This document shows, piece after piece, positions 59,184 through 64,000 of a stretch of DNA of 64,000 bases. Position 1 is the first letter of the stretch. The number at the start of each line of letters is the position of its first letter. Source of the stretch: Candidatus Aminicenantes bacterium (GTDB taxonomy: Bacteria; Acidobacteriota; Aminicenantia; Aminicenantales; Aminicenantaceae); assembly GCA_011772495.1 (NCBI GenBank), contig WVZL01000048.1, forward strand, positions 24,465 to 88,464, read 5' to 3'. Both the position numbers and the translations under genes were made by a program. Under the pieces are notes generated by a model. That model saw only the letters and a program-made list of their open reading frames with translations, did not search any database and had not been told where the DNA came from.

Positions 59184-60743
59184 GTGTCAAGACTCTACGA
59201 ATACCAGAGCAAGAAGCTATTGAAAAAGGCCGGGATCCGCATTCCTGAGGGAGGAGTGGCTTCTACCCCAAAGGAGGCTTTGACGATCGCTCAGGAAATC
59301 GGCCGACCAGTGGTGTTAAAGATTCAGGTTTGGGTAACAGGGAGGGCAGGTATCGGAGGCATTCAATTTGCGGACACCCCTCAGGAGGCTGAGAAAGCAG
59401 CGAACCAGATGCTGGGGATGAAGGTGAAAAATTTCACAGTGGATAAGGTCTTAGTCGAGGAAAAACTCCAGATCAAGACCGAGTATTTTACGGGTCTGGT
59501 CATCGACGATTCAAAGAAGTCTCCCCTGCTCGTGTTCAGCTCAGTGGGGGGGACAGGTATCGAGGATATAGCCAAGAATCATCCTAAAAAAATTTCTCAA
59601 ATCTCGGTTGATGTTTCAACCGGTCTCAGGGATTACCAAGCCCGAAACCTCATCCGGAAAGCAGGCTTTTCCGGGAAACTCCTTGTTCAACTGGCAGGGA
59701 TTCTAACCAGACTTTATCGAGTAGCACAAGCCTACGATGCTCGCTCAGCGGAGATAAATCCTCTTGTTCTTACAGAAGATAATCTCGTCTATGCCGCTGA
59801 TTGCCATCTCGTCATCGACGACTACGCTGTTTTTCGACATCCGGAGCTGGGAATAGAGGTAGCCCGGGAGTTTGACCGGCCCCCAACCCCTCTTGAGAAG
59901 ATAGCTTATCAGGCAGAGGAGGGGGATTACCGAGGGACTTTTTATTTTTTCCAGATGGCTGAAAAGATTCCTGAGCAGGAGGATTATATCGGATTTCATG
60001 GAGCTGGAGGAGGCGGTTCTATGATGTCTATGGATGCAGTCCTAGATAAAGGATTCAAACTGGCTAACTACTGCGACACGAGCGGCAATCCTTCAGCCAG
60101 CAAAGTTTACCGGGCAGCCAAGATCATTCTCTCCCAGCCCCATCTTCGAGGCTATTTTGCCTCTGGTTCAGGGGTGGCCAGCCAGGAACAGTACCATTCT
60201 GCCCGGGGAATGGTGAAAGCTTTTCAGGAGGAAAAACTGGAGATTCCTGGCATTATCCGTTTGGGAGGCAATTACGAGGAGAAAGCTATCGAGATCCTCA
60301 AGGCCTACTTGAAGGATATCCCGGCCAAGGTTGAGGGGTACGGGCGGGACGATTCGCCCGAGTTTTGTGCCCAAAGGCTGGAAGAGCTAATAAGGGAAAA
60401 CAAATCTCTCGCCTACAAGGTCAAGCCTTTAACTGAGCCTTCTTTTGGCCCCAAGAGGTACAATTTTGAAACCGTGACCGGTAGGATTTTCTTTGATCAT
60501 CAGAAGTGCCCGAACTGTAAGACCAAAGGATGCATCGAGGCCTGCACAGCTGAGATACTAGAACTAGAAGAGGAAAAACCGGTTCTGGCCGTTTCTGAGG
60601 AAGAGGCAAAAAAAGGGAAATGCACCGAGTGTCTAGCCTGCGAGATCTTCTGCACTTTCCACGAGCAGAAGGCCATTTATATCCAACTTCCCATTCTTGG
60701 ATTAAAGGAATACCGGGAAAAGGTGATCAAAGAAAATAAATAA
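59184..60743 (+). CDS. ATP-grasp acyl-CoA synthetase large subunit (SucC/citryl-CoA synthetase-like) with C-terminal ferredoxin-like domain
   Basis: RLYEYQSK, VLKIQVWVTGRAGIGGI, AEINPLV, GAGGGGS, ANYCDTSGNP; C-terminal CPNCKTKGCIEAC and CTECLACEIFC. Confidence 0.8.
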   Translation: MSRLYEYQSKKLLKKAGIRIPEGGVASTPKEALTIAQEIGRPVVLKIQVWVTGRAGIGGIQFADTPQEAEKAANQMLGMKVKNFTVDKVLVEEKLQIKTEYFTGLVIDDSKKSPLLVFSSVGGTGIEDIAKNHPKKISQISVDVSTGLRDYQARNLIRKAGFSGKLLVQLAGILTRLYRVAQAYDARSAEINPLVLTEDNLVYAADCHLVIDDYAVFRHPELGIEVAREFDRPPTPLEKIAYQAEEGDYRGTFYFFQMAEKIPEQEDYIGFHGAGGGGSMMSMDAVLDKGFKLANYCDTSGNPSASKVYRAAKIILSQPHLRGYFASGSGVASQEQYHSARGMVKAFQEEKLEIPGIIRLGGNYEEKAIEILKAYLKDIPAKVEGYGRDDSPEFCAQRLEELIRENKSLAYKVKPLTEPSFGPKRYNFETVTGRIFFDHQKCPNCKTKGCIEACTAEILELEEEKPVLAVSEEEAKKGKCTECLACEIFCTFHEQKAIYIQLPILGLKEYREKVIKENK

Positions 60744-60767
60744 TACTGAAGGAATGAAGAATTTAGA

Positions 60768-61682
60768 GTGGCTATCTTAGTCAACCAGGAATCAAGAGTC
60801 CTGATCCAGGGTATCACCGGAAGAGAGGGAATGGTTCGAACCCTTCTGATGAAGGATTATGGAACTCTGGTCGTGGCTGGTGTGACCCCAGGCAGAGGAG
60901 GGCAGGACGTTTATGGTGTTCCTGTATTTGACTCGGTGGAGGAAGCTTGGGAAAAAGCAGGGCCTTTGGATATTAGCGTGATTTTTGTCCCTGCTACGCT
61001 GGCGAAAAATGCCGCCTTGGAAGCTCTGGATGCTGGAGTCAAACTCCTGGTTATCATTCCGGACCGGGTTCCCATCTTTGATGTCCTGGAAATCAATCAT
61101 TTTGCCCGCCAGAGAGGAGCTTCTTTTGTCGGACCGAACACCTTAGGCCTGGTAAGCCCAGGAAAGGCTGTGCTGGGCATGATCGGAGGTCGGGCTGAAA
61201 GGGCAAGAGAGTGGTTTCGCCCCGGGGAAGTGGGAGTCAGTTCTCGTAGTGGAGGCATGACTTCTTCCATCTCCTATTATTTGACTGAAGCCGGGCTTGG
61301 ACAGAGCACTATTATCCATGTCGGTGGAGATGCTGTGGTCGGCCTTTCTCATCCCGAAGTGATGGAACTTTTCGAGAAGGATGAACAGACTAAAATGGCG
61401 GTCATGTTCGGTGAAATCGGCACGACCCAGGAGGAGAGGGTAGCTGATTTGATTGAAGACGGGAAATTCACTAAACCCCTGGTAGCCTATATCGGGGGCA
61501 AGGCCGCCAAGTCAGGAACAAGATTTTCCCATGCTGGGGCTATCGTGGAAGGAACTCGTGGCTCCTATGAGAGCAAGGTCAAGAGGCTGAAAGAAGTCGG
61601 AGTCCAGGTGGTTCCCACCATTTCCGATATACCAAAAAAAGCCCTGGAGATGTTGGGAAAATCAAAGGAGAAAGTCAAATGA
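60768..61682 (+). CDS. Acyl-CoA synthetase small (alpha) subunit (SucD/citryl-CoA synthetase-like)
   Basis: VLIQGITGREG, AGVTPGRGG, GPNTLG, SRSGGMT, FGEIG, phospho-His motif FSHAGAI. Confidence 0.88.
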   Translation: MAILVNQESRVLIQGITGREGMVRTLLMKDYGTLVVAGVTPGRGGQDVYGVPVFDSVEEAWEKAGPLDISVIFVPATLAKNAALEALDAGVKLLVIIPDRVPIFDVLEINHFARQRGASFVGPNTLGLVSPGKAVLGMIGGRAERAREWFRPGEVGVSSRSGGMTSSISYYLTEAGLGQSTIIHVGGDAVVGLSHPEVMELFEKDEQTKMAVMFGEIGTTQEERVADLIEDGKFTKPLVAYIGGKAAKSGTRFSHAGAIVEGTRGSYESKVKRLKEVGVQVVPTISDIPKKALEMLGKSKEKVK

Positions 61683-62458
61683 GTGAGCTTCACTGGAAAA
61701 CCGCTGTGACCGAGGTTAAACCCAATAAAATATCTTTAAGAGGATACCCGGTGGATAAGCTCTTGGGGAAAGTCTCTTTTGCTCAGGCGATTTACCTGGT
61801 GCTCAAAGGGGAACTTCCTTCTCCTGAGGTGGGAAAGCTCATCGATGCCATTTTTGTCTCTTCGGTTGACCACGGGGCAAGTCCTCCATCGGTGCTGGCA
61901 GCCAGGACCGTTGCTTCCACCGGGGCGGAATTAAACTCGGCCGTAGCTGCCGGAGTTCAGGCTATCTCCAGGTATCACGGAGGAGCCATCGAAGAGGGAA
62001 TGAAGCTTTTCTTAAAGATAGCTCAAAGAGTCGAAGAGACAAAAAAGAGAGAAGAGGAAGTCATTGATGAGATTTTGAGGGAAATGAAGGAGAGGAAGCA
62101 GCGGGCCTCAGGATTTGGCCATCGCCTTCATACCCAGGATCCAAGAACTAAAAAACTTTTTGCTTTAGCAGAAGAATTAGGGCTGGCCGGGAAATACGTG
62201 CATACAGCTCGAGGAGTGGAGAAAGCCATGGAAAAGCAGCTAGGGAAAGCGCTGCCCATTAATGTTGATGGCGCTATAGCTGCTCTTCTCTGTGAATTGG
62301 AGATTCCTCCGGAGATCGGGAATGCTTTTTTCATCATTGCTCGAGTTCCGGGCCTTGTAGCTCATGTTCATGAAGAGCGCAGCCGGATGAAACCCATGCG
62401 CAAGATTCATCCTCAAGATTATGAATACGATGGTCCTCAGGAAAGGGAGATAAAATGA
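61679..62458 (+). CDS. Citryl-CoA lyase-like protein (short citrate-synthase fold)
   Basis: WKTAVT...LRGYPV, VDHGASPPSVLAARTVAS, GFGHRLH..DPR, INVDGAIA. Confidence 0.8.
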   Translation: MSELHWKTAVTEVKPNKISLRGYPVDKLLGKVSFAQAIYLVLKGELPSPEVGKLIDAIFVSSVDHGASPPSVLAARTVASTGAELNSAVAAGVQAISRYHGGAIEEGMKLFLKIAQRVEETKKREEEVIDEILREMKERKQRASGFGHRLHTQDPRTKKLFALAEELGLAGKYVHTARGVEKAMEKQLGKALPINVDGAIAALLCELEIPPEIGNAFFIIARVPGLVAHVHEERSRMKPMRKIHPQDYEYDGPQEREIK

Positions 62459-62988
62459 AACAAGAATTATTCGATCTTCTGCCTGAATTGAGAGAGATTT
62501 CCGACTCCGACCTGCAAGAAAAGACCATAAAAGTGTGGCAGGAAGCCATAAAGGGAGGAGGCTGGAAAATCGAAGACCTTACCCTGATACCCTTTACCTT
62601 ATTGATCGAGAATATTTCTGTAAACCTCATCGAGCATACGCGGGCTGTTGCCATGTGTTGTGCAGAAATCGCGGCCGCTCTGGAAAAGATGTACGAGGGA
62701 AGAGTGACCATCAAAAAGGATTATCTGCTGGCCGGAGCTCTTCTTCACGATGTGGGGAAGCTGCTCGAGTTTAAGAAAGAGAAAGAAAGGGTTGTGAAGA
62801 GCAGAGAAGGGAAACTCCTTCGCCATCCTATCTCTGGCGCGGCCCTAGCCTATAGCCTGGGGCTTCCCCAGGAGGTCATTCACGTCATTGCTGCTCATTC
62901 CAAAGAGGGCGACGGGGCCAGGCGCTCTGTGGAAGCGGTGATCGTGAATCACGCTGATTTTCTCAATTTTGATATTTTTAAGCTTTAG
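62455..62988 (+). CDS. HD-domain phosphohydrolase
   Basis: EHTRAV, ALLHDVGKL, RHPISGA, IAAHS, HAD. Confidence 0.85.
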   Translation: MKQELFDLLPELREISDSDLQEKTIKVWQEAIKGGGWKIEDLTLIPFTLLIENISVNLIEHTRAVAMCCAEIAAALEKMYEGRVTIKKDYLLAGALLHDVGKLLEFKKEKERVVKSREGKLLRHPISGAALAYSLGLPQEVIHVIAAHSKEGDGARRSVEAVIVNHADFLNFDIFKL

Positions 62989-63002
62989 CAAGGAAGGTAA
63001 AT

Positions 63003-64000
63003 TTGGCTCAGACTTTTTCTGAAAAGATATTCAGCCTGAAAGCAAGGCGTGATGTCAAAGCTGGGGAAGTGGTGATTGTTTCCCCTGATTATCTTCTTTC
63101 CCATGACAATGCTGCCGCTATCATTCAGGAATTCAATAAGCTGGGGATCAAACAGGTGAAAAATCCTCAGAAAATCGTGATTATCTTAGACCATGTGGTG
63201 CCTGCCTCGACCGAGAAATATGCGCAAAACCACCAGCTCATCAGAAAATTCGTGGCTTCCCAGAAGCTCCAGAACTTCTTTGATATCAACTGCGGTATCT
63301 GTCATCAAGTTTTTTCTGAAAAAGGCTTTGCCCTCCCTGGGAAGCTTATCCTAGGCAGTGATTCTCATACCACTAGCTACGGCGCCTTTGGAGCCTTTGC
63401 TGCTGGCATCGGCCGCTCTGAAGTGGCTTCCTTATGGGCGATGGATGAAATCTGGCTCAAGGTGCCGGAGACTATAAAGATTGAGCTAGCAGGAAAGCTT
63501 CCTCCGGGAGTCTATACCAAAGATGTCATCCTGAAGATCATCGGAGAACAAGGAGCTGATAAGGCAAACTATAAAGCGGTGGAGTTTTCAGGAGAGGCAG
63601 CCAAGAATTTCAGCCTGGCTTCCCGCCTGACGATGACCAACATGGCTGCTGAGTTGGGAGCCAAGAACGGATATTTCATACCCAACGAAGAAACCATTCA
63701 TTTTCTCGAAGAAAGAAAAAAAGAAGACTATCAGATCATCAGCTCCGATGATGAGGCGGAGTTTGAAGAGATTATTCAGGTCGATGTCTCTTCTATTGAA
63801 CCGCAGGTGGCCTGTCCTCATACGGTGGACAAAGTAAAGCCTGTATCTGAAGTCGTGGGAACGAAATTCCATCAAGCCTTAATCGGAACCTGCACCAATG
63901 GCCGCCTGGAAGATTTGAGGATCGCCGCTAAGGTTTTAAAAGGGAAAAAGGTGCATCCGGCAGTAAGGGTGCTGGTCATTCCAGCCTCTCAGGAAACCTA
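63003..64000 (+). CDS. Aconitase-family hydratase large subunit (LeuC/HacA type), 3'-truncated by window edge
   Basis: TTG start after AAGGAAGG; MAQTFSEKI, SHDNA, LDHVVP, GICHQV, GSDSHTTSYGAFG, IGTCTNGRLEDL. Confidence 0.9.
   Translation, partial: MAQTFSEKIFSLKARRDVKAGEVVIVSPDYLLSHDNAAAIIQEFNKLGIKQVKNPQKIVIILDHVVPASTEKYAQNHQLIRKFVASQKLQNFFDINCGICHQVFSEKGFALPGKLILGSDSHTTSYGAFGAFAAGIGRSEVASLWAMDEIWLKVPETIKIELAGKLPPGVYTKDVILKIIGEQGADKANYKAVEFSGEAAKNFSLASRLTMTNMAAELGAKNGYFIPNEETIHFLEERKKEDYQIISSDDEAEFEEIIQVDVSSIEPQVACPHTVDKVKPVSEVVGTKFHQALIGTCTNGRLEDLRIAAKVLKGKKVHPAVRVLVIPASQET

Follow-up and report, generated by a model that had tools for sequence, protein, structure and literature searches.

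The closest characterised relatives of the system described here are the citryl-CoA synthetase (CCS) CcsAB together with Ccl, a citryl-CoA lyase (CCL), of Hydrogenobacter thermophilus (6HXQ and 6HXP), which have in common with it a two-subunit ADP-forming ligase standing next to a short lyase of the citrate-synthase fold. ATP-citrate lyase (ACL; AclAB/ACLY) has the same overall chemistry as that inferred below, and the succinyl-CoA synthetase (SCS) SucCD shares with the ligase its fold and its phospho-histidine. Further points of comparison are the front end of the α-aminoadipate pathway, as found in fungi, in Thermus and in the Aks enzymes of methanogens, and a cassette of ligase, small Cys-rich protein and CitE/HpcH lyase, sometimes with PrpD, that occurs in Archaeoglobi, Bathyarchaeia, Dehalococcoidia, Syntrophales and others and contains a ligase of the same clade with the same iron-sulfur (Fe-S) module. 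Here we describe a nine-gene operon, A to I, of a Candidatus Aminicenantes bacterium, the 5′ half of which lies at the end of a 64,000-nucleotide stretch of DNA, hereafter the window (contig C36:24465-88464 of genome G000, 3.28 Mb and 88% complete). The operon is most aptly classed as a variant among two-step citrate-cleavage systems, its ligase A/B is a previously undescribed, putatively Fe-S-bearing relative of citryl-CoA synthetase, and its gene content and sequence motifs are pointing to an unstudied ATP-coupled route to make or split a citrate-like acid, not to CO2 fixation. A literature search returned no paper on this operon, on an Fe-S-bearing ligase of the SucCD type or on homocitryl-CoA, and one preprint mentions CCS homologues in Acidobacteria with no further detail.

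The features of the locus are as follows, those beyond the window being numbered on L001, which corresponds to contig C36:82000-100000:

59132..59160, forward strand: putative sigma70-like promoter, TTGACA-17-AATAAT, 24 nt 5′ of the ligase GTG; identified by consensus match alone, at 11 of 12 positions.
59184..60743, forward strand: gene A, SucC-like beta (ATP-grasp) subunit, 519 aa, GTG start, of a 'DTSGNP'-clade ADP-forming acid-CoA ligase; Pfam ATP-grasp_2 and Citrate_bind.
60456..60740, forward strand: C-terminal ferredoxin-like domain of gene A, putative 2x[4Fe-4S] type, C-x2-C-x4-C-x3-C ... C-x2-C-x2-C-x3-C.
60768..61682, forward strand: gene B, alpha subunit, SucD-like, 304 aa; CoA_binding and Ligase_CoA, phospho-His motif SHAGA.
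61679..62458, forward strand: gene C, citryl-CoA-lyase-family enzyme with a short citrate-synthase fold, 259 aa; NF004869.
62455..62988, forward strand: gene D, HD-domain protein, 177 aa; Pfam HD, partner of the second LeuCD pair (LeuCD-2) by position and distribution.
63003..64000 in the window, ending at window-equivalent 64256, forward strand: gene E, LeuC/HacA-type large subunit 1, 417 aa; hacA_fam.
L001:6718-7221, beyond the window: gene F, LeuD-type small subunit.
L001:7218-8336, beyond the window: gene G, Iso_dh dehydrogenase.
L001:8348-9598, beyond the window: gene H, LeuC of LeuCD-2.
L001:9600-10151, beyond the window: gene I, LeuD of LeuCD-2.

The preliminary description of the window, made from its sequence alone, had listed a ligase beta subunit, an alpha subunit, a short citryl-CoA lyase, an HD hydrolase and a LeuC/HacA-type hydratase, and open reading frames (ORFs), Pfam and NCBIfam agree on all five, at exactly the same positions; the 2x(Cys4) domain at the C-terminus of the beta subunit had been overlooked. 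The overlapping or very short junctions that it reported are real, with distances of +24 (A/B), −4 (B/C), −4 (C/D) and +14 nt (D/E), and the junctions beyond E are mostly overlaps or gaps of 1–14 nt, so that the genes form one tight operon. Genes B, C and D, and likewise E, F and G, are joined by 4-nt overlaps, a sign of translational coupling, and tsaB and rimI come next after I. Inspection of the downstream genes, which had been proposed as a check, identified the small subunit F and the dehydrogenase G and, in addition, the second LeuCD pair H/I. In public records the operon genes are labelled as succinyl-CoA synthetase, acetate-CoA ligase, citrate synthase and isopropylmalate dehydratase.

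Judged by sequence, A/B is not the succinyl-CoA synthetase of the cell and is CCS/ACL-like in its acid-binding motifs. The beta subunit contains HGAGGGGS and ANYCDTSGNP, the motifs (GAGGGGS, ANYCDTSGNP) to which attention had originally been drawn, and the SCS-type motifs NGAGLA and ANFLD-x-GGG are absent from it; the phospho-histidine attributed to the alpha subunit is also there (SHAGA, with the His at about residue 255). Both subunits score below the cut-offs of the NCBIfam models for their SCS counterparts, the beta subunit at 259.4 bits against SucC (cut-off 370) and the alpha subunit at 299.6 bits against the SCS equivalog (cut-off 336), and the beta subunit exceeds the cut-off of Pfam Citrate_bind (35 bits, cut-off 26.8). 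In the PDB, the best match of the beta subunit is the SCS beta subunit of Thermus aquaticus, at 249 bits versus 132 bits for H. thermophilus CcsA (6hxq_B), and that of the alpha subunit is an archaeal SCS alpha subunit (2yv2, 296 bits), with the small CCS subunit of H. thermophilus (6hxq_A) at 169 bits. The ATP-grasp half of the beta subunit and the alpha subunit are most similar to SCS, whereas the acid-binding motifs are replaced: GGGGS, GNP and KIILS-P--RG are common to this half of the beta subunit and CcsA, and its acid-site motif, of the ANY-x-(D/E)-x-SG-x-P type, is similar to that of ACLY. Similarity to ATP-citrate lyase is otherwise much lower, with beta-subunit PDB matches of 30–35 bits, and in the operon lyase and alpha subunit are separate proteins.

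The phylogenetic position of the ligase is in agreement with these observations. In a quick IQ-TREE analysis of 120 representative beta subunits, which contained no named reference sequences (such as H. thermophilus CcsA, AclB and MtkA), all beta subunits with SCS motifs, among them the SucC of the same genome, group together in a clade supported at 100%. Outside this clade the query belongs to a separate (D/E)TSGNP group (98% support), which is also set apart from both the EYSGNP (ACL-like) and the EIGGNP (CcsA-like) group, CcsA itself not being placed in the tree. The genome has its own tricarboxylic acid (TCA) cycle cluster on contig C49, which comprises SucD (457 bits), SucC (577 bits, with NGAGLA and ANFLDVGGG), class-I fumarase, malate dehydrogenase, an Iso_dh protein with an S-x-N motif and AcnB (1336 bits), and a 433-aa citrate synthase (668 bits) on contig C48. 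The scores below cut-off, the exchanged acid-site motifs, the position outside the SCS clade and the presence of a true SucCD elsewhere together argue that A/B is something other than SCS, most probably an ADP-forming acid-CoA ligase from a separate clade of the SucCD/CcsAB/ACL superfamily. The initial view of the ligase as CCS/ACL-like rather than SCS-like is therefore upheld for the acid site and has to be qualified for the protein as a whole, which is nearer to SucC; the suggested phylogeny, as run for the beta subunit, separates it from SCS, and in place of a grouping with CcsAB, which is not established, it yields a clade of its own.

A further difference from CcsAB is the ferredoxin-like domain at the end of gene A. 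The last ~95 residues contain eight Cys residues, at positions 442/445/450/454 and 480/483/486/490, and reach 19.8 bits against Pfam Fer4_9, under the cut-off of 27. An AlphaFold (AF2) model of this tail has a mean predicted local distance difference test (pLDDT) score of 85.8, and its Foldseek matches are weak, none with E≤0.001, those shown being mostly Fe-S ferredoxin-like domains (oxalate oxidoreductase, ABCE1, HgcB, HydB, HdrA, PsaC and ferredoxin I). The tailed form of ~520 aa recurs in more than 120 sequence clusters, nearly all of them from Aminicenantes, at 62–93% identity. In other phyla (Archaeoglobi, Bathyarchaeia, Dehalococcoidia, Anaerolineae, Syntrophales, Desulfobacterales, Nitrososphaeria and Heimdallarchaeota) a ligase of the same clade ends at ~420 aa, and between it and the alpha subunit stands a separate ORF of ~95 aa that shares 35–51% identity with the tail seen in Aminicenantes; across phyla, six to eight Cys residues are conserved. 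Since the module is a tail in Aminicenantes and a stand-alone homologue between beta and alpha elsewhere, with its Cys residues conserved, it is a conserved third component of this ligase clade, which may serve in redox sensing or have a structural role. The clade with its Fe-S module is represented by at least 573 loci in species-representative genomes.

In the loci of other phyla, a CitE/HpcH-type lyase is the next gene in 59 of 73 cases, often followed by MmgE/PrpD, which indicates that ligases of this clade pair with CoA-ester lyases of different folds. The cassette differs from the Aminicenantes operon in that the Fe-S module is a gene of its own and the lyase has a CitE-like fold, scoring 244 bits against TIGR01588, below its cut-off. 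The arrangement of DTSGNP ligase beta subunit, ~95-aa Cys-rich ORF, alpha subunit, CitE/HpcH-type lyase and MmgE/PrpD is very common (L037-L116; for instance L037:1968-6684), and class-I fumarase subunits and a flavoprotein of the fumarate reductase/succinate dehydrogenase (FRD/SDH) type sometimes accompany it. In the Aminicenantia family f11 (L029:9890-12995), the genes after A and B encode a class II aldolase and an NfnAB-like pair, composed of a dihydroorotate dehydrogenase B (DHODB) Fe-S/NAD-binding subunit and a Fer4_20/Pyr_redox_2 subunit, which is a candidate redox partner of the Fe-S domain.

Gene C had been described as a short protein of the citrate-synthase fold and a citryl-CoA lyase, and its membership of that family is borne out. 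It scores above the cut-off of the NCBIfam citryl-CoA lyase model NF004869 (277.7 bits, cut-off 212), matches the CCL of H. thermophilus (6HXP) at 203 bits and ~50% identity, with no citrate synthase exceeding 84 bits, and retains the catalytic motifs HGGA, GHR..DPR, NVD and R-x-PG; at 259 aa, it is without the large N-terminal part of citrate synthase. C is thus a member of the CCL family by sequence, and on this basis oxaloacetate and 2-oxoglutarate cannot be told apart as its keto acid.

The downstream enzymes bear on the nature of the acid, and both E/F and the dehydrogenase appear to carry a homocitrate-type signature. E passes the hacA_fam model (554.6 bits, cut-off 385.7) and reaches 478 bits against HacA_Meth, below the cut-off of 550, and E/F are the highest-scoring among the paralogues with the fungal homoaconitase model TIGR00139. 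The top NCBIfam match of G is the methanogen homoisocitrate dehydrogenase AksF2 (352 bits, below the cut-off of 540), and its loop FSPIVRLRQ aligns with SSPIVALRK of the homoisocitrate dehydrogenase (HICDH) of Schizosaccharomyces pombe (3TY3), the top PDB match for this segment; the loop also loosely resembles VVVKLR of the isopropylmalate dehydrogenase (IPMDH) of Sulfolobus tokodaii. FSPIVRLRQ is unchanged in most G orthologues examined, and its SPIV core is present in all of them. The loops of the small subunits, G(K/R)YTY in F (GKYTY here) and HNAFLHIT in I, are likewise held in every orthologue in which the loop is readable. By PDB comparison F is closest to the isopropylmalate/citramalate isomerase of Methanocaldococcus jannaschii (167 bits), with homoaconitase at 147 bits, and a search for long fused relatives of F found LeuCD fusions of Anaerolineae and no fungal homoaconitase.

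An internal control for the reading of these loops is available within the class. The genomes of family f11 have no AcnB and contain a cluster of citrate synthase, LeuCD and isocitrate dehydrogenase (ICDH) (G023:C26:281373-285508, L121), in which the small subunit has the loop YFHLRT and the dehydrogenase RSLNVTLR. YFHLRT holds the Arg that recognises the distal carboxylate, as does YLRT in the homoaconitase of M. jannaschii, and the LeuCD-type enzyme probably serves as aconitase in f11 genomes. The ICDH on C49 of the genome studied here also has an S-x-N loop (SCNVSMR). Against an assignment of E to I as ordinary aconitase and ICDH stands the finding that, unlike these citrate-synthase-linked f11 paralogues, F and I do not have the Arg loop and G does not have S-x-N.

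The comparison with the α-aminoadipate front end rests on the hacA_fam assignment of E, the SPIV loop shared by G and the S. pombe HICDH, and the presence of two aconitase-family enzymes; it is limited by the lack of an HMGL-type homocitrate synthase and of downstream lysine enzymes in the genome and by the lack of a YLRT loop, and in the operon a ligase and a lyase take the place of the synthase. Fungi and Thermus reportedly require two aconitase-family enzymes to convert homocitrate into homoisocitrate, which would account for two LeuCD pairs in one operon. A relative assembled in one contig, G143, has a LysW-type lysine cluster (L142, G143:C1:619600-624600) in which LysX (311 bits) and LysZ (292 bits) pass the cut-offs of their models, together with LysY/ArgC, a LysJ-like transaminase and a synthase resembling homocitrate synthase (HCS). 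This cluster has no homoaconitase or HICDH gene of its own, and the only LeuC-type genes of the genome, aside from AcnB, are the operon's E and H, which makes E/F, H/I and G the only homoaconitase and HICDH candidates in G143.

All phyletic counts refer to one sample, which comprises 151 genomes of the class. The fused ligase A and the lyase C occur in exactly the same 47 genomes, which comprise all or nearly all members of families f1, f3, f4, f5, f6, f10 and f11 and none of f2, f7, f8, f9 and f12. The order A to I is kept in f1, f3, f4 and f5, and A to F in f6 and f10. In the 1.9-Mb genomes of f11 all nine genes are present and scattered, with A+B, C, D+E, G and H at separate loci, and in two relatives unrelated genes are inserted between F and G. 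The dehydrogenase G is found in 139 of the 151 genomes, in nearly all families. In G043 (C10:377361-381134) the ligase gene is broken into two frames, the lyase gene is incomplete and an in-frame TGA lies in the HD gene; G was not found in this genome, and decay seems to affect the entire module. The functional coupling of ligase and lyase is backed by their shared distribution, by the conserved order and by the joint damage of A, C and D in G043. The likeness to the CCS and CCL route of the reductive TCA cycle of Aquificae, proposed in the preliminary description, extends to the ligase standing next to the lyase and to this strict co-occurrence, and stops at the clade of the beta subunit and at the operon partners, which here are homoaconitase- and HICDH-like, outside any context of autotrophy.

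An amino-acid biosynthetic role was considered for the operon and rejected. Neither an HMGL-like synthase nor a ketol-acid reductoisomerase (KARI) was found in G000, in G089, which is a single contig, or in G018, which is 100% complete, and KARI is present in only 18 of the 151 genomes; in each of the five KARI genomes examined, an extra LeuC-type gene, beyond E and H, lies beside LeuA-like genes of the leu cluster. Leucine and isoleucine synthesis are thereby ruled out, by the lack of KARI and LeuA and by the separate leuC of those genomes that have ilvC and leuA. Synthesis of lysine by the LysW-type route is ruled out in this genome because LysX was not found; among 21 relatives LysX is absent from 20, and LysA is present in most. 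The genome itself has a sub-threshold LysA-like frame only (G000:C7:4388-5704), in another genome of the genus the LysA frame has two TAG stops (G151:C116:6102-7334), and G034, the sister genome of G143, is without LysA. Lysine auxotrophy of this genome or genus is possible.

What the sequences show is the set of genes, the families to which they belong, the clade of the ligase, the co-occurrence and the lack of leucine and lysine pathways; substrates, direction and coupling of the pathway we infer as follows. The lyase C would interconvert acetyl-CoA plus a 2-oxo-dicarboxylate with a tricarboxylyl-CoA, and A and B would convert the latter, with ADP and Pi and via the phospho-histidine, into the free hydroxy-tricarboxylate, CoA and ATP, again reversibly, so that C and A/B together would amount to a reversible ATP-coupled equivalent of the (homo)citrate-synthase reaction. 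E/F and H/I, the latter with the HD protein D as partner, would isomerise the acid through an ene-intermediate, and G would interconvert the isomerised acid with the next 2-oxoacid and CO2. Our leading candidate for the acid, ranked above citrate and held at somewhat less than even confidence, is homocitrate, which would place the pathway between 2-oxoglutarate and 2-oxoadipate. Replacing the hydrolysing synthase with a ligase and a lyase is what lets ATP-citrate lyase run the citrate-synthase reaction backwards. Citrate synthase is present in all 47 genomes with A to C, and in G143 the HCS-like synthase also coexists with them, which makes the cleavage direction plausible; an ATP-conserving condensation is equally allowed. 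We propose, still more tentatively, that the system is a split homocitrate synthase, which would make C the first lyase of the citrate-synthase fold, and A/B the first ligase of the SucCD type, to act on homocitryl-CoA and homocitrate, with a built-in ferredoxin-like redox module.

Several observations weigh against homocitrate. C keeps every citrate-synthase-type residue of the H. thermophilus citryl-CoA lyase, and no enzyme of the citrate-synthase fold is known that uses 2-oxoglutarate. The loops of F and I are without the Arg of the methanogen homoaconitase YLRT loop, and in this genome and most relatives no recognised source or sink of 2-oxoadipate was found. Furthermore, G, the HD gene and H/I are far more widespread than A to C, so that the link between the two sets could be one of co-regulation and not of a shared substrate, and f2, which has AcnB and an ordinary ICDH, keeps E-F-G-tsaB with neither a lyase nor a ligase nor a synthase.

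The chief rival, possible but rather unlikely in our estimation, is a citrate to 2-oxoglutarate branch, in which A/B would be a true citryl-CoA synthetase, C a true citryl-CoA lyase, one or both LeuCD pairs a split aconitase and G an isocitrate dehydrogenase, operating either reductively (2-oxoglutarate to citrate to acetyl-CoA and oxaloacetate, as in the reductive TCA cycle or in glutamate fermentation) or oxidatively with a gain of ATP. The similarity of C to the H. thermophilus CCL and its NCBIfam score, the GGGGS, GNP and KIILS-P--RG motifs shared with CcsA, the Citrate_bind match, the LeuCD-type aconitase of small Aminicenantia genomes and the 4–7 genes for 2-oxoacid:ferredoxin oxidoreductases per genome all fit this branch, which nevertheless would duplicate the citrate synthase, AcnB and S-x-N ICDH already in the genome; F, I and G, moreover, are missing the 'LRT' and 'SLN' determinants of the f11 proteins linked to citrate synthase, and G has the SPIV loop of homoisocitrate dehydrogenase. 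The oxidoreductase (POR_N) genes, of which there are seven here and 4–7 in each genome examined, go along with a complete enzyme set of the oxidative type, and the finding as a whole gives no support for CO2 fixation. The earlier surmise that the operon serves a citrate analogue such as homocitrate and not a reductive TCA cycle of the Aquificae type is favoured by the evidence, and the citrate fermentation also suggested there is not established.

Nested distributions (A to C in 47 of the 151 genomes, the HD gene and H in roughly 80, G in 139), the scattered loci of f11, the insertions between F and G in two genomes and the f2 genomes with E/F and G alone would also be accounted for if two unrelated functions had come together in one operon, A to C being a stand-alone ATP-dependent cleavage of citrate or another acid and D to I an older isomerase and dehydrogenase module of the whole class with a substrate of its own. 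This we regard as improbable, given that A to C are never without D to I in the 47 genomes, that 4-nt overlaps tie B to D and E to G, that the order is kept in at least six families, and that families f8 and f9 have a second set of lyase and CoA-transferase beside G. That second set, with its HMG-CoA-lyase-like protein and family III CoA-transferase, can equally be cited for an alkylmalate pathway via CoA esters, leading from pyruvate to 2-oxobutyrate through citramalate or from 2-oxoisovalerate to 2-oxoisocaproate through isopropylmalate, or the reverse, as can the best PDB match of F and the hydrophobic I-V in the G loop, reminiscent of the S. tokodaii IPMDH; the intact oxaloacetate-type site of the lyase is a poor fit for pyruvate or 2-oxoisovalerate, however, the SPIV match to homoisocitrate dehydrogenase is closer, and genomes with ilv-leu clusters have a separate leuC, which together leave such a pathway little likelihood. 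The case that had been named as refuting the initial reading, an ordinary succinyl-CoA synthetase with a true citrate synthase, has on its side the best PDB matches of both ligase subunits (249 and 296 bits) and has almost no probability left, being contradicted by the missed cut-offs (259 of 370 and 300 of 336 bits), the replaced acid-site motifs, the position outside the SCS clade, the genuine SucCD and 433-aa citrate synthase elsewhere in the genome and the length of C, which without the large N-terminal part is only 259 aa.

The assignment matters beyond this genome. Given the misleading labels in public records, automated surveys in which CCS plus CCL marks the reductive TCA cycle would mistake these fermentative Aminicenantes for autotrophs. 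Ligases of this clade, with their Fe-S module, abound in uncultured anaerobes; knowledge of their substrate would close a gap in what is understood of carbon metabolism in abundant subsurface bacteria and archaea, and it would give the SucCD/ACL family a new activity as well as a new redox-linked domain. If the homocitrate proposal holds, anaerobes would gain a reversible ATP-coupled step between 2-oxoglutarate and 2-oxoadipate, that is, an α-aminoadipate front end in reverse for catabolism or an energy-conserving elongation of 2-oxoacids, and a single Fe-S ligase clade would work with different lyases in many phyla of archaea and bacteria.

The HD protein has the look of a partner dedicated to the LeuCD-2 hydro-lyase. 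Its invariant residues are H61, H98-D99, H124, H148 and D168. A sequence search of the PDB gave no match, the protein atlas lists it as 'HD domain' only, and its model (pLDDT 92) has as structural matches generic HD phosphohydrolases, the best being YhaM (E 1.4e-4). It is found in 83 of the 151 genomes and LeuC-2 (H) in 80, in the same families and in the same six f2 genomes, and in f2 and f8 the HD gene lies directly 5′ of a fused H-type LeuC-LeuD (L137:9594-11990; G127:C4:18305-20087); it is on this adjacency and near-identical distribution that the partnership is based.

In f8 (genus g34) and f9, which are without A to C, the G orthologue is followed by the HMG-CoA-lyase-like protein (306 aa; NF004283 265 bits, cut-off 246), the family III CoA-transferase and a LeuC/LeuD pair (L133-L135, for example L134:6083-11226). 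This cluster is another set of CoA-ester lyase and CoA-activating enzyme beside an isomerase and a dehydrogenase, and supports a link at the level of the pathway. In L135, an acyl-CoA dehydrogenase lies upstream of a G cluster of this type. Elsewhere in the class, metK and ahcY lie directly 5′ of the lyase gene in f11 and of the HD and LeuCD-1 genes in f7 (L118:6962-17215; L138:3367-8095), and in f11 the lyase gene is followed by yceD, plsX, fabH, fabG and fabF.

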